This document shows positions 8,950 through 62,198 of a DNA stretch of 64,000 nt, piece after piece. Every line of letters begins with the position of its first letter. Positions within the stretch are counted from its first letter, which is position 1. This DNA comes from Patescibacteria group bacterium (GTDB lineage: Bacteria; Patescibacteriota; UBA1384; XYA2-FULL-43-10; 1-14-0-10-43-13): contig JBAYVE010000004.1 of NCBI GenBank assembly GCA_041674765.1, positions 26,751 to 90,750 on the forward strand, in the 5' to 3' direction. The notes under the pieces were generated by a model. The model worked only from the letters and a program-made list of their open reading frames with translations. It was not told where the DNA came from and did no database searches. Position numbers and translations under genes: made by a program.

Positions 8950-9060
8950 GTTGGTCATCTCGACATCCGCCTCTGGCGAGACGAGAGATCTTCATTTGAG
9001 TGTTTGATTCTGGATTCCCGCCTACGCGGGAATGACAGCAGAAGAGGCGGTACATCAATG
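8950..9060. repeat. MITE-like repeat (ggattcccgcctacgcgggaatgac hairpin plus companion module)
   Basis: One mismatch from the 24-bp hairpins at 52013-52036 and 52214-52237. Confidence 0.7.
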
Positions 9061-30046: not shown

Positions 30047-30225
30047 AGTTCCTTTGTCATTCCAGACTGTAAGCTTGATCCGCTAGCTAGCGGGCTGGAA
30101 TCCAGTTACCTGCACAAGCAAAGCAACTTCCTGGATTCCCGGATCATGGATCGCCCAACTATTAGATTTCAAAGGTTAAGGCTCATCCTGTCCGAGAATG
30201 ACAATACTTAATTTATGGGAAAGAT
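30047..30225. repeat. MITE-like repeat cluster (gtcattccagactgtaagcttgatccgctagctagcgggctggaatcc; ggattcccggatcatgg; gtcatcctgtccgagaatgac)
   Basis: Near-identical element at 40877-40930. Confidence 0.8.
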
Positions 30226-32637: not shown

Positions 32638-32710
32638 TAAGGAATTGGATTCCCGATGCCACTTCGCCAAGGCTATGAGGCACATGGTCAGGTCGGGAAT
32701 GACACTATTT
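32638..32710. repeat. 66-bp mini-element with inverted termini ggattcccga ... tcgggaatgac
   Basis: Read directly from the sequence. Confidence 0.75.
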
Positions 32711-37092: not shown

Positions 37093-38103
37093 TTAATAGC
37101 TAGATAACGATATTGTAAGATAACGATCAAGACCTGCAAGGTCTTTTTTTAGTTCTATTTTTGCGGTTGGATAGTGATAGTGTGAAAATTTTTCTATCTC
37201 CATAGCATTTCTGGGATCAAGTTCAATTAAAATCGTACCATCTTCAGCAAGGTGGTTTCGGGCTTGCGCTAGAAATCGTTTGATTATCTCTGAACCATTG
37301 TCGTCGGCAAAGATTGCATTTTGGGGTTCAAACTTAACCGTATTATGTATTATGTATTTGGTATTATGAGTTTCCAGCTCATTGCTTAATACTTTATACT
37401 CACACTTTGATACCAGCTTCGGGACATACGGCAAGTTGGCGATAATAAGATCAAACCCGCCTGACGGCGAGGCAGGCTTTTTATGAAGTTGATGATTTTG
37501 GAATAAGTCAGAATGAATAAATTTAATCGTATTGTTCGAGCACAAGCGAGAACCAGCTTGGTTTGATAGTTCTCGGCCTCTGGCCTCGAACAATAACTTC
37601 TTTGCATTCTTCCTGGCCATTTTCAGGGCTTTTGCAGAAATATCGGAGGCGTATAAGTTTATAAAGTTGGAAAGTTCATAAAGTTCATCAAGTTTTTTGG
37701 CCAGTGAGATGATGAGGCAGCCGGAGCCGGTACCAAGGTCTAAAATTTTCAATTTACAATTTACAATTTTCAATTTTTTCTGAAGGACTTCAACCGCTTG
37801 TTCTACCAAAAATTCACTTTCGGGGCGGGGGATAAGGACATCGGGCGTTACCAGAAATTCGTACCCGAAAAATTCTTTTTTTCCGGTAAGATAGACAATC
37901 GGTACATTGTTTTGGCGTTTTTTCAACAATTTCTGGAATTTATTAATTTGGCTCTTTGACGGCTCGAACTCAGGATGGCTCAGAAGGAACGTCTTGTCTT
38001 TGCTAGTCGCGTATGACAAAAGAACCTGAACATCGAGTTCGGGAGAGGCACTTACCTCTTTGAGTTTGAGGACGGATTGAGAATATAGTTTCTTCAGGTT
38101 CAT
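37093..38103 (-). CDS. prmC: release-factor glutamine N5-methyltransferase PrmC/HemK, carrying repeat-derived in-frame insertions
   Basis: DLGTGSGC and NLPYVP (NPPY) motifs; located downstream of prfA; extra segments encoded by hairpin/repeat DNA (37440-37470, 37540-37600, 37640-37700, 37745-37790). Confidence 0.8.
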   Translation of the reverse strand: MNLKKLYSQSVLKLKEVSASPELDVQVLLSYATSKDKTFLLSHPEFEPSKSQINKFQKLLKKRQNNVPIVYLTGKKEFFGYEFLVTPDVLIPRPESEFLVEQAVEVLQKKLKIVNCKLKILDLGTGSGCLIISLAKKLDELYELSNFINLYASDISAKALKMARKNAKKLLFEARGRELSNQAGSRLCSNNTIKFIHSDLFQNHQLHKKPASPSGGFDLIIANLPYVPKLVSKCEYKVLSNELETHNTKYIIHNTVKFEPQNAIFADDNGSEIIKRFLAQARNHLAEDGTILIELDPRNAMEIEKFSHYHYPTAKIELKKDLAGLDRYLTISLSSY

Positions 38104-38171
38104 GGATTAATTTTCAATTAATAATTTAAAATTTAGAAATATTTTTAAATTATTAAATTCTAAATTTTAAA

Positions 38172-39239
38172 TTATGACTGTGCTGCCAGCTTCCTTGCTT
38201 GGTCTTCGGTCATAAGGGCGTTAACTATCGGCTCGATATCGCCATCCATAATATTTGGCAGAGAGTGCCAAGATTGATTTATTCTGTGATCGGTAACACG
38301 ATCTTGAGGGAAATTGTAAGTTCTAATTTTTTCAGAACGATCCCCTGTCCCGACCTGAGAAAGACGCAAGTCCTTTCTTTCTTTTTGCAGTCGTTCTTCT
38401 TCGGCGGCCAAAATTCTTGAGCGGAGAATACTCATTGCCTTGTCTTTGTTCTTCATTTGGCTTCGTTCATCCTGACACTGCACTACAATGCCGGTAGGGA
38501 GGTGAGTGATTCGGACAGCGGAATACGTTGTGTTCACAGATTGTCCGCCAGCTCCTCCTGAGCAGAAGGTATCGATGCGGAGGTCTTCAGTTTTTATATT
38601 TATATCGGCCTCTTCTGCCTCAGGCAAGACAGCGACAGTAACGGTGGAAGTGTGGACTCTCCCCTGTTTTTCCGTTTCCGGCGTACGCTGAACACGGTGA
38701 ACTCCGCTTTCATATTTCATCTTCGAATATACTTTTTGTCCGCTGACTTCAAATGTGACTGACTTTAATCCGCCAATTCCCGTTGTTTGAGATTCCAAAA
38801 TGTTTGCCCGCCAACCTTGACGTTCGGCGAAGCGGGTATAAAGGCGGAATAACTCGGCGGCGAATAATTCTGATTCGTCTCCGCCCGCTCCTGGCCTTAT
38901 TTCAATAATAGAGTTTTTTTCATCGTTCGGATCTTTTGGCAGGAGAGCCAATTCCAACTCTTTCTCCATCTTGTCTTTCTTGGGATTTAGTCGGTTTATT
39001 TCTTCGTGCGCCATCTCTCTGAGTTCTTCGTCGCTAGAACTGATCATCTCTTCGCTATCGGAGATATTCTTGAGTACGCTAAAATAAGAATTGATTAATT
39101 GTGCAAGATCATCAAGACTGGATTTCTCTCTTGCAATTTTAGTGAATTCTGCATTATTGGCTTGAATTTCAGGCCTCTCTAAGCTTGCTGAGAGTTCGTT
39201 GTATCTGTCTAAAATTTTTTGTAGTTTTTCTTTATTCAT
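38172..39239 (-). CDS. prfA: peptide chain release factor 1
   Basis: GGQ motif ([18 protein letters not shown]), PxT-like decoding region. Confidence 0.95.
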
Positions 39240-39284
39240 AATCTTTAAATGCTAAAGGTAAAATAACCGAAATAACGAAATCAT

Positions 39285-39322
39285 AGTTTTTAGTTGTTTA
39301 GTTTCTTTTCGCATTTAGCGTT
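39285..39322 (+). repeat. ribosomal-locus repeat copy A (ttagttgtttagtttcttttcgcatttagcg)
   Basis: Family also at 39862-39932, 40025-40093 and 40822-40860 (reverse orientation). Confidence 0.75.
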
Positions 39323-39415
39323 GTAATTAAAAAGCCAGCCTTTATCTCAATAATTATATTATAAAGATTTTGGGCCGACTTTAATACCCGCCTGCCGGCG
39401 AGGCAGGTAGAGTAG

Positions 39416-39700
39416 CTATTTGTCTTCTGTTTTTTTCTCTTCTTTGGCAGGTTTGGCTGCTTTTACGGCTTCCTTTTTGGCTGCCTCTTCTTTCATCTTT
39501 TTGGAAGCTTCCATTCTGGCCTTGAATTTATCTACTCTGCCGGCTGTATCAACAAGTTTCTGCTTGCCGGTGAAGAATGGATGACATTGAGAACAAATTT
39601 CAACACTAATATCGTCCCTGGTTGATCCGGCGGAAAATTTGGCTCCACAGGCGCAGGAAATAGTGATATCTTTGTAATTTGGGTGGGTATTTTTTTTCAT
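39416..39700 (-). CDS. rpmE: 50S ribosomal protein L31 with K/E-rich C-terminal tail
   Basis: [25 protein letters not shown]. Confidence 0.9.
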
Positions 39701-39861
39701 TTCAAAAACAGATTACTAATCATACAAATCTACAGATATCGAATTGTTACCGACTATTGGTAATCAATAATCCGTTAGTATTTGTTTTACTTGAATGATT
39801 CTATCACACTCTTGAACTTGAGTCAATAATATGATAAGATCGTACTTAGTTCAAGTTAATG

Positions 39862-39932
39862 CGAAAAACTAAAAGAAACGAAAGAACGAAATTTAGTTTT
39901 TTGTTGTTTAGTTTATTTTCGTATTTAGCTTT
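39862..39932 (+). repeat. ribosomal-locus repeat copy B (internally palindromic, about 70 nt)
   Basis: gcgaaaaactaaaagaaacgaaag...tttagttttttgttgtttagtttattttcgtatttagc. Confidence 0.75.
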
Positions 39933-40024
39933 AAAGGGGGAAGTCGACACATTCGTCTCAAATCTCTCTCCTTCCAAGGAGCCAGTCGAATGGATGAGGA
40001 TAATAAGAGAAAGTTCAGTTCAAC

Positions 40025-40093
40025 TCTAAAAACTAAAATAAACCAAATAGCGAAATTTAGTTTTTAGTTGTTTAGTTTATTTTCGTTTTTAGC
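40025..40093 (+). repeat. ribosomal-locus repeat copy C, 24 nt upstream of the rpsB start
   Basis: ctaaaaactaaaataaacc...tttagtttttagttgtttagtttattttcgtttttagc. Confidence 0.75.
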
Positions 40094-40116
40094 ATTATTT
40101 AGTAATAAGGATTTTT

Positions 40117-40821
40117 ATGAACCAGTTACCGAGTTTGAGAGAGATGCTTGACGCCGGTGTTCACTTCGGTCACAAGACCTCCAGATGGCACCCAAAAATG
40201 GCGCCTTACATTTACATTTCTAAATCTGGCGTCCACGTTATCAACTTGGAAGAGACAGAAGCGAAATTGAAAGAAGCAGTCGAATTCATCAGTCGTGAGG
40301 CTTCAGAAGGCAAAACTTTTATTTTTGTCGGGACCAAAAAGCAGTCCGGTGAAATTGTCAAAGAAGCTGCTGTTGAAGCGGGCATGCCTTATGTAAATGT
40401 TCGTTGGCTCGGTGGTACTATTACCAATTTTGAAGCTATCAAGAGCGCTGTCAAAAACTTTCAGAAACAAAAGGAAGAACTTGAAAAAAATAATGATCTG
40501 CCAAAGAGTGAACTCTCAAAACTTCGTAAAGAAGTTGCAAGAGGCGAAAAGTTTCTCGGCGGTTTAGTCGGTATGGACAGAAAGCCGGACGCGTTGATCC
40601 TTTTCGGTTCGTACGACGAGAAGATCGCACTCAGAGAAGCAAAAGGTATCAATATCCCCGTCGTCGCAGTTGTCGATACAAATGCTGATCCAAATGCTGT
40701 AGAGTATCCGATTCCTGCCAATGATGATGCCACAAAATCAGTAAAACTGATCGCAGACACTTTCGCTCGTGCTATCAAAGAAGCAAAAGCCAAGTCAGCC
40801 AAAGTAGCTGAAACAAAGTAA
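40117..40821 (+). CDS. rpsB: 30S ribosomal protein S2
   Basis: MLDAGVHFGHKTSRWHPKM N-terminus. Confidence 0.95.
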   Translation: MNQLPSLREMLDAGVHFGHKTSRWHPKMAPYIYISKSGVHVINLEETEAKLKEAVEFISREASEGKTFIFVGTKKQSGEIVKEAAVEAGMPYVNVRWLGGTITNFEAIKSAVKNFQKQKEELEKNNDLPKSELSKLRKEVARGEKFLGGLVGMDRKPDALILFGSYDEKIALREAKGINIPVVAVVDTNADPNAVEYPIPANDDATKSVKLIADTFARAIKEAKAKSAKVAETK

Positions 40822-40860
40822 CTAACGCTAAAAACGAAAAGAAACTAAACAACTAAGTAT
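40822..40860 (-). repeat. ribosomal-locus repeat copy D (inverted relative to A-C), immediately after the rpsB stop
   Basis: gctaaaaacgaaaagaaactaaacaactaa is the reverse complement of ttagttgtttagtttcttttcgtttttagc. Confidence 0.75.
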
Positions 40861-40864
40861 TACA

Positions 40865-41000
40865 TATTTCCCTCGTATGTCATTCCAGACTGTAAGCTCG
40901 ATCCGCCAGCTGGCGGACTGGAATCCAGGAAGTTTGGTCGTTATAATATAAAGTATTGGATTCCCGGATCATAGCGCTGTCTATCCGAGAATAACATTGG
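40865..41000. repeat. MITE-like repeat (gtcattccagactgtaagctcgatccgccagctggcggactggaatcc; ggattcccggatcatagcg; gagaataacat)
   Basis: Near-copy of 30055-30140. Confidence 0.8.
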
Positions 41001-41022
41001 GGGTAATTAAACAAAGGAATTT

Positions 41023-41619
41023 ATGTCAAATATTACAGCAAAACAAATCGCAGATTTGAGAGCCAAAACAGGCATAGGAATGATGGAATGCAAGAACGCT
41101 CTTGTCGAGGCCGGCGGTAATGAAGAAAAAGCGATGGAAATCCTTCGCAAAAAAGGTGCAGCCAAGGCAGCTAAAAGATCCGAAAGGGAGACAAAAAACG
41201 GAATCATCGAATCATATATACATGCCGGTGGAAAAATCGGTGTAATGGTTGAAGTGCTCGCCGAGACAGATTTTGTCGCAAAAAACGAAGAGTTCAAAGA
41301 GTTTGCGCACGACGTTGCTCTTCATATCGCTGCGATGGCGCCGAAATTTGTTAGTCGTGACGAGGTCCCTGCAGAAGAAGTCGCAAAAGAAAGAGAAATC
41401 CTTCTCGAAGAAGTAAAAGCTTCTGGTAAGCCTGAGAATATTGCTGAAAAAATTGTAGAGGGCAGACTTTCAAAATTCTATAGTGAAATTTGTCTACTCG
41501 AACAATCTTTCGTCAAGAATCCGGACTTAACTATAAATGACCTTTTGAATGAAAAAATTTCTAAGATCGGCGAGAAAATCGTTATCTCAAGATTTTGTCG
41601 GTTTGAAATTGGAGCATAG
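41023..41619 (+). CDS. tsf: elongation factor Ts (short form)
   Basis: ITAKQIADLRAKTGIGMMECKNALVEAGG UBA-like N-terminus. Confidence 0.9.
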   Translation: MSNITAKQIADLRAKTGIGMMECKNALVEAGGNEEKAMEILRKKGAAKAAKRSERETKNGIIESYIHAGGKIGVMVEVLAETDFVAKNEEFKEFAHDVALHIAAMAPKFVSRDEVPAEEVAKEREILLEEVKASGKPENIAEKIVEGRLSKFYSEICLLEQSFVKNPDLTINDLLNEKISKIGEKIVISRFCRFEIGA

Positions 41620-41620
41620 A

Positions 41621-41712
41621 ATAGTGGAATGTAGAATGTGGAATGTAGAACGTGGAAGGGGGAACGTGGAATGGGCGATGGGGAACGGGGCAGAACGGGG
41701 GAAAGAATGGAA
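41621..41712. repeat. Purine-rich degenerate tandem repeat, second locus (ggaatgtagaatgtggaatgtagaacgtggaagggggaacgtggaatggg...)
   Basis: Shares ggaatgtagaacgtgga and gggaacgtggaatggg with 301-455. Confidence 0.8.
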
Positions 41713-41717
41713 GGGAT

Positions 41718-41776
41718 ACCGGCCGCATGAAGGTGCTGCCGGTTTTTTTAATCGCCCCATGGGGGTGGGGCGATTA
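41718..41776 (+). terminator. tandem hairpins: accggc..gccggt + T7, then atcgcccc..ggggcgat
   Basis: Read directly from the sequence. Confidence 0.7.
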
Positions 41777-41837
41777 AAATCCCAATAAATGGGGCAAAAA
41801 CCTTCCGCTCGGCGGAACTTTTTGGTATTGTCTAATT

Positions 41838-42542
41838 ATGAAATATAACAAAATACTCATTAAACTCTCCGGCGAGGCCCTTCAGGGGAGCCGGCAGAGC
41901 GGCATTGATCCAGAGGTTGCTCAATTTGTTGCTTCCGAGATCAAGGAAGCGCAGGACTTGGGGGCAAAAGTAGCTGTTGTTGTTGGGGGCGGTAACATTT
42001 ACCGTGGCGCTGAGTCCTTTGAAAAAGATGGGATTAGAGAGGAAACCAGTCATTGGATGGGGATGCTAGCTATTTGTATAAATTGTCTGGCTTTGTCTGA
42101 TCTATTCAAGTCCTTTGGTGTTGAAAATCATGCTCTCTCTGCTTTGGGACAAGTTGGTGATATGGGATCATATTCAGTTTCAGAGGGCAAAAAAACATTG
42201 GACCAGGGTAAGGTTTTGCTTTTGTCAGGCGGTGAGGGAAAACCATTTCGCTCCTCAGATTCTGGGGCAGCGACCAGAGCCAAAGAGCTCGATATGGAGG
42301 TAATTTTCAAGATGACAAAGGTTGACGGAGTCTATGATTCTGATCCTTTTGTAAATCCAAATGCGAAAAAGTTTTCTGCGATCAGTTTTGATGAGGTTTT
42401 GGAGAGAGACTTGAAGGTGATGGACAGGGGCGCTTTTGAAACGTGCAAGGAAAATGGTATTTCAATAGTTGTTTTTAGGTTGGAAAAAGGTAATATTAGG
42501 AAAGCAGTGATGGGTCAGGAAATAGGGACCGTCGTTAAATAA
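41838..42542 (+). CDS. pyrH: UMP kinase
   Basis: ILIKLSGEAL, VVVGGGNIYRG. Confidence 0.9.
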   Translation: MKYNKILIKLSGEALQGSRQSGIDPEVAQFVASEIKEAQDLGAKVAVVVGGGNIYRGAESFEKDGIREETSHWMGMLAICINCLALSDLFKSFGVENHALSALGQVGDMGSYSVSEGKKTLDQGKVLLLSGGEGKPFRSSDSGAATRAKELDMEVIFKMTKVDGVYDSDPFVNPNAKKFSAISFDEVLERDLKVMDRGAFETCKENGISIVVFRLEKGNIRKAVMGQEIGTVVK

Positions 42543-42626
42543 TAAAAAACAGATTACAGATAATACGAATGTACGGATATATTTCGATCCAAATATTCGT
42601 AATCTGTGGTAAAAACGGAGTAAATT

Positions 42627-52004: not shown

Positions 52005-52245
52005 TCTGTATTGTCATTCCCGCGGAGGCGGGAATCTATACAATGTAAATTCCTTTTATGAAACTATATTATGTTTATATATTAGCGAGTGAAAAGAACG
52101 GAACTTTGTATATTGGTGTTACTTCTGATTCAAAGAAAAGGGTTTGGCAACACAAGAATAAATTGGTAGTGGGAAGATTTATATTTTAATATTTAAGGCA
52201 AAACAACTTCCTCGATTCCCGCCTCCGCGGGAATGACGGACAAGG
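52005..52245. mobile_element. Truncated GIY-YIG nuclease mini-element bracketed by perfect 24-bp inverted hairpin repeats
   Basis: gtcattcccgcggaggcgggaatc at 52013-52036 and its exact reverse complement at 52214-52237; internal ORF 52058-52189. Confidence 0.75.
52058..52189 (+). pseudogene. GIY-YIG nuclease N-terminal fragment (43 codons)
   Basis: MKLYYVYILASEKNGTLYIGVTSDSKKRVWQHKNK matches the GIY-YIG signature; ORF stops well short of a full domain. Confidence 0.7.
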
Positions 52246-57097: not shown

Positions 57098-57469
57098 CTA
57101 TTTTTTCAAGATAGCTGCAAAAATAAGTATCAATTCATGAACTTCCTTGTAAATTTTTGCAGCCCAATCTCGCTTATTCGGATCTGCTTTCACAATCATC
57201 CTGAGCCAATGTAATGTTTCTTTAGCTTCTTTCTTGGCTATGGCAATCTTGTTCTGAAAATCTTTTTTTGAGTTTGCTTCGTTTGCTTCAGCATAATTAG
57301 CCCCTATACTTGTTCCGGATCGGACGATCTGACTTATCAATGGATTGGTAATAACTGATCCCTTAATATTTTGGCAAAATTCAATAACATCTTCGCCAAC
57401 CTTAGCCGTTCTATCCAGTAGATCGAATTTCTGAATATTGGAATTTGGTTGTTGATTGGATGTTGACAT
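57098..57469 (-). CDS. four-helix-bundle protein (23S rRNA-IVS / Avd-like family), copy 1
   Basis: SIGANYAEANEANSKKDF..AKKEAKETLHWL family signature. Confidence 0.75.
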   Translation of the reverse strand: MSTSNQQPNSNIQKFDLLDRTAKVGEDVIEFCQNIKGSVITNPLISQIVRSGTSIGANYAEANEANSKKDFQNKIAIAKKEAKETLHWLRMIVKADPNKRDWAAKIYKEVHELILIFAAILKK

Positions 57470-60526: not shown

Positions 60527-60907
60527 ATGGAAACAAAAAAGTATCTACAACTTAATGACATTGAGGCATATAAAACAGCTTTTTCATTATCAAATTATGT
60601 TTGGGATAGGATAGTGGCTTGGGACCACTTCTCTAAGAGTACAATCGGTAATCAATTTGTCAGAGCAATCGATTCAATCTCGGCAAATATCGCTGAAGGA
60701 TTTGGCAGATACGGCAAGAAAGATAAAATCTGTTTCTATCGATATAGTTACGGATCAATCAAAGAGTCCCTTGATTGGAATGAGAAGGCAAAAGATAGGA
60801 AATTAATTTCCGAAGAAGAATACAGTCGTATCTTTGCAGATTTACAAAAACTGCCTAAATCTGTCAACTATCTCATCAAATTTACTAACGAAAAATTAAC
60901 AATATAA
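60527..60907 (+). CDS. four-helix-bundle protein (23S rRNA-IVS / Avd-like family), copy 2
   Basis: SISANIAEGFGRY..SYGSIKESLDW. Confidence 0.75.
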   Translation: METKKYLQLNDIEAYKTAFSLSNYVWDRIVAWDHFSKSTIGNQFVRAIDSISANIAEGFGRYGKKDKICFYRYSYGSIKESLDWNEKAKDRKLISEEEYSRIFADLQKLPKSVNYLIKFTNEKLTI

Positions 60908-61847: not shown

Positions 61848-62198
61848 ATGGCTAATTCTGAAAAAATATATGATCTTGAGGAAAGGACTTTTATATTTGC
61901 TAGGAATACGGTTATTCTCATTAAAAAACTACCTAAAACAATATCAAATATCGAATATGGCAAACAAGTAATCCGGTCTTCCGCTTCAACAGGCGCAAAC
62001 TATATTGAAGCGAATGAAGCTTTGGGTAAGAAAGATTTCCTTATGAGGATTAAAATCTCCCGCAAAGAAGCGAAGGAATCGGCTTTCTGGTTTAGGCTTC
62101 TGAAAGAAACCAATTCAAATTTTGCTCAAGAGCTAGAATCATTACTGAATGAGGCTACTGAGTTGAAAAAAATATTTTCATCAATGCTTGGAAATTGA
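61848..62198 (+). CDS. four-helix-bundle protein (23S rRNA-IVS / Avd-like family), copy 3
   Basis: STGANYIEANEALGKKDF..SRKEAKESAFWF. Confidence 0.75.
   Translation: MANSEKIYDLEERTFIFARNTVILIKKLPKTISNIEYGKQVIRSSASTGANYIEANEALGKKDFLMRIKISRKEAKESAFWFRLLKETNSNFAQELESLLNEATELKKIFSSMLGN

Follow-up and report, generated by a model that had tools for sequence, protein, structure and literature searches.

The AT-rich repeats that flank the genes for ribosomal proteins L31 (rpmE) and S2 (rpsB) were analyzed in contig JBAYVE010000004.1 of a Patescibacteria group bacterium (candidate phyla radiation, CPR; assembly GCA_041674765.1). The window, the whole stretch of DNA under study, comprises 64,000 nucleotides (nt) of this 92-kb metagenome contig (positions 26,751 to 90,750), and coordinates are counted from its first nucleotide. 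With a probability of roughly 0.55, the repeats are lineage-specific, locally duplicated palindromes akin to miniature inverted-repeat transposable elements (MITEs), repetitive extragenic palindromic (REP) sequences and Correia elements, which would be transcribed as passengers and would not act as an autoregulatory element. The autoregulatory structure of rpsB is probably a separate segment, the leader at 39936-40012, judged by its conserved sequence and predicted fold.

The family consists of seven half-sites, arranged as three imperfect palindromes of about 75 nt (copies A, B and C) and one inverted half copy (D):

39248-39322, plus strand: copy A, a full imperfect palindrome with an A-rich arm (39248-39283) and a T-rich arm (39288-39322).
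39858-39932, plus strand: copy B, a full imperfect palindrome.
40022-40096, plus strand: copy C, the best-formed palindrome, with 30-nt arms, 83% complementary, around a 7-nt loop.
40822-40861, minus strand: copy D, a lone half copy, the inverted T-rich arm without a partner arm.

The arms of copies C and B are denoted C_L and B_L (A-rich) and C_R and B_R (T-rich). The four copies of the original prediction were all recovered at their places, by pattern as well as by profile search. The core TTAGTTGTTTAGTTTMTTTTCG, matched as a degenerate pattern with at most one mismatch, was found four times in the 64 kb (39290, 39900 and 40064 on the plus strand, 40835 on the minus strand) and never in 100 shuffled sequences (chance expectation 0). 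A profile of the arm detected the seven half-sites with E values of 6e-8 to 1.4e-5, all in 39248-40861, and no eighth in the window, where the next-best match had E=3. A further 8.8 kb from the same contig contained no copy. All seven arms thus lie inside 1.6 kb, and none in the other ~71 kb of the 72.8 kb inspected (the window and the 8.8-kb extension).

The units A, B and C are very AT-rich and share their ends (AAYGCTAAA...TTTAGCRTT), and an AAAC/TTTAG periodicity can be read within the arm. Their halves are 71-83% complementary, which gives these short non-coding units the terminal inverted repeats of a MITE, and copy C is the longest local inverted repeat anywhere in the window. B and C had been described as internally palindromic, which was borne out; copy A is palindromic as well, and its site had been correctly placed with too short an extent (39285-39322), since the full palindrome begins at 39248. 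An independent assembly from another sequencing run (Logan SRR6484325, locus L002) was 100% identical over 39941-40905, and copies C and D are therefore not an assembly artefact.

The repeat is confined to this lineage as far as it could be sampled. None of the syntenic rpsB loci of eight related genomes (L005, L006, L007, L008, L010, L012, L013 and L014; S2 proteins 68-76% identical, L010 being the closest) contained it; the orthologous sites are empty in 8/8, the presence/absence pattern of a MITE. No closer relative than 76% S2 identity was found in databases. The loci of six relatives held neither a multi-copy repeat nor an equivalent inverted repeat bracketing rpsB. Exact-pattern scans with GTTGTTTAGTTTNTTTTCGNNTTTAG of public genome, metagenome and viral collections, which do not include the source genome, found no true copies. 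Two matches only were obtained, on one Vibrio contig and one phage-like contig, and both were rejected as chance, being inside coding sequence and without a palindromic partner. An Rfam cmscan of 38000-42500 (E<=5) gave only three weak, unrelated matches elsewhere, and none on the repeats or the leader. The restriction of all seven arms to one locus, their absence from the eight relatives and the lack of true copies in the public collections argue for passengers.

The position of each copy was determined relative to the surrounding genes. The layout, prmC-prfA-rpmE on the minus strand and rpsB-tsf-pyrH-frr on the plus strand, has the same order in the eight related genomes:

37093-38103, minus strand: prmC.
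38172-39239, minus strand: prfA, release factor 1 (PF03462, PF00472).
39416-39700, minus strand: rpmE, ribosomal protein L31 (PF01197).
40117-40821, plus strand: rpsB, ribosomal protein S2 (PF00318), with stop codon TAA at 40819-40821.
41023-41619, plus strand: tsf.
Downstream of tsf, plus strand: pyrH and frr.

Within the 72.8 kb, rpmE and rpsB are the only ribosomal-protein genes, and they are adjacent to each other. Predicted promoters and the rpsB leader lie between them:

39812-39840, plus strand: predicted rpsB promoter (TTGAAC, a 17-nt spacer with TGA, and TAAGAT at 39835-39840).
39826-39821 (TTGACT) and 39803-39798 (TAGAAT), minus strand: predicted divergent rpmE promoter, overlapping that of rpsB.
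39936-40012, plus strand: rpsB leader, about 75 nt, conserved upstream of rpsB in all eight relatives and not part of the repeat family.
39950-39955 with 39987-39992, plus strand: leader helix P1.
39968-39981, plus strand: leader hairpin P2.
39963-39967 (UCUCU) with 40006-40010 (AGAGA), plus strand: leader pseudoknot, from the internal loop to a downstream A-rich box.

The arrangement TTGnnn-17(TGn)-TAnnnT is present in all eight genomes, and rpsB transcription would start near 39847.

Copy A lies 8 nt upstream of the start codon of prfA and is located downstream of the rpmE terminator hairpin. It has the plus orientation of B and C and is hence antisense to prfA. Folding of copy A gave −15.9 kcal/mol on the plus strand and −8.8 kcal/mol (z −0.35) on the minus strand, the sense strand of prfA. 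The orientation thus ignores the genes, A, B and C all being on the plus strand although prfA is on the minus strand, where A folds poorly; this again argues for passengers. Copy B is placed beyond the rpmE promoter, outside the predicted rpmE transcript, and would form the extreme 5' end of the rpsB 5' untranslated region (UTR), about 10 nt past the putative transcription start. Copy C follows the leader pseudoknot and precedes the ribosome-binding site of rpsB (AAGGA, 40105-40109), ending 8 nt before it. Its distance from the rpsB ATG, earlier given as 24 nt, was measured as 20 nt (C ends at 40096, ATG at 40117). The gene is bracketed by C on its 5' side and by D on its 3' side. Copy D is inverted, as had been claimed, and starts directly after the stop codon, without the 7-nt gap originally assigned to it; on the rpsB mRNA it reads A-rich.

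The distances between conserved features indicate where sequence was gained. From the −10 box to leader helix P1 there are 109 nt in the window, compared with 29-44 nt in five relatives (measured by script; L008 and L012 not included), and copy B is therefore read as a ~75-nt insertion; without it, the promoter-to-leader distance would resemble that of the relatives. The leader is highly conserved between the window and L010, and the sequence on both sides of it is unrelated. Both the expanded promoter-leader distance and the unrelated flanks favor passengers. Between the leader and the ribosome-binding site, unrelated hairpins were found in L006, L007, L008 and L014, and no stable structure in L010, L012, L013 and L005; the segment differs even between L006 and L007, despite identical S2 proteins. 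A hairpin at this place is accordingly optional and turns over, and an obligatory one was rejected on the strength of the four genomes without stable structure. The rpsB-tsf spacer, which holds copy D, measures 201 nt here and 12-64 nt in most relatives. The optional nature of the hairpins 3' of the leader and the enlarged spacer are further reasons to regard the copies as passengers.

Relationships among the copies were examined arm by arm. Between copies, the T-rich arms are 83-91% identical (29-32/35) and the A-rich arms 79-82% identical (27-28/35), compared with 71-80% complementarity of the two arms inside one unit. Because same-arm identity (79-91%) exceeds within-unit complementarity, an already imperfect palindrome appears to have been copied as a unit. 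B and C have in common an 'A' sequence variant and about 12 nt of 5' flank, and A and D a 'C' variant and a GCGTT tail. A double change among copies was seen in 1/21 hairpin pairs, so there is no covariation evidence for the repeat hairpins; this, and the lack of an Rfam match, also favor passengers. Conservation with covariation in relatives had been proposed as the check on the repeats, and with the element absent from 8/8 relatives and a single double change among the copies neither was found. The suggestion that the repeats are a processing or autoregulatory structure was therefore not supported; copy A, antisense to prfA and poorly folding on that strand, speaks against it as well.

Conservation with covariation, as expected of an S2-type autoregulatory leader, was present in 39936-40012 and not in the repeats. 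RNAalifold analysis of an eight-genome alignment gave compensatory changes in 10/12 pairs of P1 and P2 (for example, CGCUCA/UGAGCG replaced by CAUUCG/CGAAUG). The pseudoknot comprises 5-8 bp in 9/9 sequences, with double changes of GC to AU, GC to UA and UA to CG. Its variants include GGUUUCU/AGAAACC, AGUUUCU/AGAAACU and AAUUCUCU/AGAGAAUU, and the window and L010 have (U)UCUCU/AGAGA(A) in place of the usual GGUUUCU/AGAAACC. Of greater use than the repeats is this context: in this clade of Patescibacteria, rpsB can now be annotated with its conserved promoter and with a covarying, pseudoknot-containing leader of S2-binding type.

A sequence of events that would account for these results is as follows. 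An AT-rich imperfect palindrome of about 75 nt would have entered the UTRs of the prfA-rpmE/rpsB-tsf cluster and then multiplied in the cluster by local copying, copy D being a truncated or never-completed half copy. The copies would be co-transcribed with the genes. Within the rpsB transcript, B (−21.2 kcal/mol, z −2.95) and C (−20.2 kcal/mol, z −4.62) would fold as self-contained stem-loops on either side of the S2-binding leader pseudoknot, and would be tolerated because the leader and the ribosome-binding site stay free; copy D folded alone gave no structure. Any effects would be by-products, such as stabilization of the mRNA by a 5'-terminal hairpin or a C:D duplex that RNase III could cut.

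Several observations weigh against repeats that are mere passengers. A typical MITE or REP family is scattered genome-wide, and here every known copy is local in the 72.8 kb read. The flanks of A, B and C showed no consistent direct repeat that could be a target-site duplication; Only A and B have flanks resembling TTAA, a sequence that AT-rich DNA contains often. No gene for a transposase, a REP-associated tyrosine transposase (RAYT), a Y1-transposase or a Nop-domain protein (Tas) was seen among those annotated in the window and its extension. The earlier proposal of another MITE family comes close to the best explanation. In addition, every copy lies in the UTR of a translation gene, the T-rich arms are better conserved than the A-rich arms (83-91% vs 79-82%), and C_R and B_R find in D a far better complement than in their own partner arms; the latter two patterns could result from selection, either for pairing or for a binding site. 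Finally, the 11-mer AAACTAAACAA from the core was also found in the rpsB-tsf spacers of L006 (3746) and L007 (3294), in the position and orientation of copy D, and otherwise only in the four window copies in 130 kb of loci. This hints that copy D may derive from native spacer sequence and not from an insertion; the 11-mer may have arisen by chance, the sequence being A-rich, or be a remnant of D's origin. Passenger repeats leave the strict local clustering and the slightly better conservation of the T-rich arm unexplained.

Among the alternatives, a functional long-range RNA structure survives best and is itself unlikely. The T-rich arm of C (or B) would pair with D and close the rpsB cistron into a loop through a duplex of about 30 bp. 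Such a duplex could be a substrate of RNase III or block ribosome loading while rpsB is untranslated, and would link S2 autoregulation to mRNA decay or uncouple rpsB from tsf expression. Were the pairing functional, it would be a rare bacterial example of UTRs closing their own protein-coding cistron by means of a repeat element. The original prediction had the flanks of the rpsB mRNA pairing over about 30 nt, and in thermodynamic terms this was right. C and D are 85% complementary over 47 nt, including a 30-nt stretch with one mismatch. RNAduplex gave −37.2 kcal/mol for C_R:D (15 bp, one mismatch, then 14 bp) and −29.7 kcal/mol for B_R:D, compared with −21.0 kcal/mol for local hairpin C (C_L:C_R) and −18.3 kcal/mol for local hairpin B (B_L:B_R). 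In the minimum-energy fold of the predicted 1054-nt rpsB mRNA, C_R pairs with D over 28 bp and hairpin C is not closed. With one end 4 nt before the ribosome-binding site and the other at the stop codon, the duplex would be opened by translating ribosomes. Precedents exist in Staphylococcus aureus icaR (PMC3868564) and in transcribed Correia elements (PMC2649163).

However, an inverted copy of the repeat such as D is complementary to C as a matter of course, local hairpins would form first during transcription, copy A would be without a role and the ribosome-binding site lies outside the duplex. The near-perfect complementarity over at least about 20 bp of a long-range RNase III processing stem is present in C_R:D, but the conserved pairing of the 5' and 3' flanks is not: no complementarity between the rpsB 5' UTR and 3' flank was found in the loci of six relatives, and in most relatives the rpsB-tsf spacer measures only 12-64 nt.

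It is distinctly unlikely that the repeats belong to an ordinary genome-wide MITE or REP family of tens of copies, only partly visible in the DNA at hand. In the same genome, another family of small repeats (GTCATTCC...GGAATGAC) is indeed dispersed, with members in many of the window's intergenic regions, and only about 73 kb of the genome was inspected. Seven arms within 1.6 kb, against zero in the remaining 71 kb, would nevertheless be very unlikely under random scattering.

A lineage-specific RNA clamp, which would extend the long-range pairing, is improbable. When rpsB is untranslated, for example under S2 repression at the leader, the T-rich arm beside the ribosome-binding site would swap its own A-rich arm for the better-matching D, and the resulting duplex of about 30 bp would trigger RNase III cleavage or lock the mRNA. 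The A-rich sequence in the prfA 5' UTR, the form of copy A on the prfA mRNA, pairs with C_R in trans at −38.3 kcal/mol and would allow cross-talk between the prfA and rpsB mRNAs.

Very doubtful, too, is a role of the ~35-bp arm as a DNA site for a lineage-specific regulator or nucleoid protein. Such a protein would control prfA and rpsB-tsf together, and each of its four strong sites would have a degenerate inverted site beside it. The copies are indeed orientation-independent, as expected of a site in double-stranded DNA, and all lie within one translation-factor gene cluster; the T-rich arm has an internal TTTAG periodicity and is more conserved than its partner, although the gap is small (29-32/35 vs 27-28/35). 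A 35-bp site without conservation in relatives would be unusual, three of the four sites lie downstream of the putative promoter of rpsB or beyond the gene, and the adjacent genes include no candidate regulator.

The stem-loop guide RNAs (tigRNAs) of tandem interspaced guide RNA (TIGR)-Tas systems, or targets of such guides, are a most improbable identity: these systems are common in CPR, with stem-loop arrays that are palindromic, poorly conserved in sequence and flexibly placed (bioRxiv 10.64898/2026.09.09.750476), but the stems here are almost continuous, with no unpaired spacer pair, and a tigRNA identity was rejected because no copy contains box C (UGAUGA) or box D (CUGA) and no Nop-domain (Tas) gene is among the annotated genes. 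A replication origin or iterons were rejected since the sign of the GC skew is unchanged, and intrinsic terminators were rejected because the AT-rich stems lack a GC clamp and the rpmE terminator is a separate hairpin at about 39325-39385.

That rpmE hairpin (39325-39385, minus strand) is conserved and followed by a T-run 3' of rpmE (AAAATCGGCC...GGCCGATTTT in relatives). Its loop contains TATAAT on the prfA strand in every case, and the hairpin may be both the rpmE terminator and the prfA promoter. Right after the rpmE stop codon, some genomes have a small GC-rich palindrome, ACCCGCCTG(N)CAGGCAGGT; it is at 39389-39411 in the window and also in the prfA-rpmE spacers of L007 and L010, and is absent from that of L006, which is otherwise identical there to L007. 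The same spacer of L006 (2227-2473, compared with L007 1816-1971) contains an insertion of about 91 nt with GGCGCT at both edges, one more case of small elements turning over rapidly in these UTRs. The prfA-prmC spacer (38118-38175) is filled by a perfect inverted repeat of 18 nt made up of A and T only (ATAATTTAAAATTTAGAA / TTCTAAATTTTAAATTAT).

Two further repeat families were noted. One is palindromic, has the ends ACAGATKAC...GTAATCTGT and is found in the window at 39702-39788 (rpmE 5' UTR) and 42545-42612 (frr 5' UTR), and in relatives at L007 2440-2548, L008 2895-3003 (rpsB 5' UTR) and L010 ~1420-1470 (prfA 5' UTR). Its members directly precede the start codons of various translation genes in several genera and keep one orientation, the same end being turned toward the gene. 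The element of L007 is replaced in the near-identical strain L006, and the family may represent a mobile hairpin or else a shared operator. The other is the dispersed, GC-richer family mentioned above (GTCATTCC...GGAATCC / GGATTCC...GGAATGAC), with members at 40870-40990 and near 30056-30140, 36542, 52013-52230, 9012-9029 and 32647-32696, which is probably the first repeat family of the original prediction. Most of the enlarged rpsB-tsf spacer is taken up by this family, and L008 has a similar element in its own rpsB-tsf spacer.

Other features were recorded along the window. A short open reading frame at 39859-40029, across copy B and the leader, was dismissed as spurious, being neither conserved nor preceded by a ribosome-binding site. 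In the tsf-pyrH spacer (41620-41720), tandem copies of GTGGAATGTAGAA precede a tract rich in purines and G (GGAAGGGGGAACGTGGAATGGGCGATGGGGAACGGGG...), and a 54-aa gene without a family match is called there. Three paralogues of PF05635 ('23S rRNA-intervening sequence protein'), at 57098-57469 (minus strand), 60527-60907 (plus strand) and 61848-62198 (plus strand), are scattered among glycolysis and hydrogenase genes.

Taken at face value, the AT-rich family adds a small palindromic repeat to those already known, here in a CPR genome, and is of local interest only. The locus shows fast turnover of UTRs at core translation genes in these reduced genomes, and their acceptance of hairpin insertions beside a conserved regulatory RNA.

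Both the leader and the repeats can be set beside known systems. The leader at 39936-40012 resembles the rpsB-tsf leader that interacts with S2 (E. coli t44, Rfam RF00127; PMC3616713) in its position in the 5' UTR and in its design of a helix plus a pseudoknot. In that widely distributed leader a GGU internal loop forms the pseudoknot (Fu et al., 2013; PMC3616713), and here, too, a GGU-type segment of the internal loop pairs downstream. It differs in giving no Rfam match at E<=5, and the AT-rich repeats only flank it and are not leader. The C:D pairing is comparable to that of S. aureus icaR, where pairing of the 5' and 3' UTRs with RNase III cleavage was shown experimentally and covers the ribosome-binding site (PMC3868564). 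In both cases a 3' UTR segment is complementary to the 5' UTR of the same mRNA and may be a substrate of RNase III, whereas the duplex predicted here stops 4 nt short of the ribosome-binding site and is a side effect of the repeat copies.

The repeats themselves belong to a known kind, the small palindromic intergenic repeats. REP sequences and bacterial interspersed mosaic elements (BIMEs) are extragenic imperfect palindromes, often located in 3' UTRs or between cistrons, single or as inverted pairs, and can stabilize the upstream mRNA. REP units are about 20-40 nt long and GC-rich, with a conserved head tetranucleotide, hundreds of copies and a RAYT gene. The imperfect palindrome outside genes is shared, but the GC-richness, the head tetranucleotide, the hundreds of copies and the RAYT gene were not seen here, and a REP/BIME identity was set aside for a very AT-rich unit of 75 nt with 3.5 known copies and no Y1-transposase gene seen. 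The enterobacterial repetitive intergenic consensus (ERIC) sequences, or intergenic repeat units (IRUs), share the properties of small palindromic intergenic elements with the Correia elements of Neisseria. Correia and ERIC families number tens to hundreds of scattered copies, as opposed to 3.5 known copies in 1.6 kb, and the element described here is extremely AT-rich, with its internal AAAC/TTTAG periodicity; the TA target duplication of Correia elements is not evident. A likeness exists to Correia elements, units of 70-150 nt with inverted-repeat ends that lie in UTRs and intercistronic spacers, form long mRNA hairpins and vary in presence between related genomes, and that are transcribed with neighboring genes and can be bound or cut by RNase III (PMC2649163).

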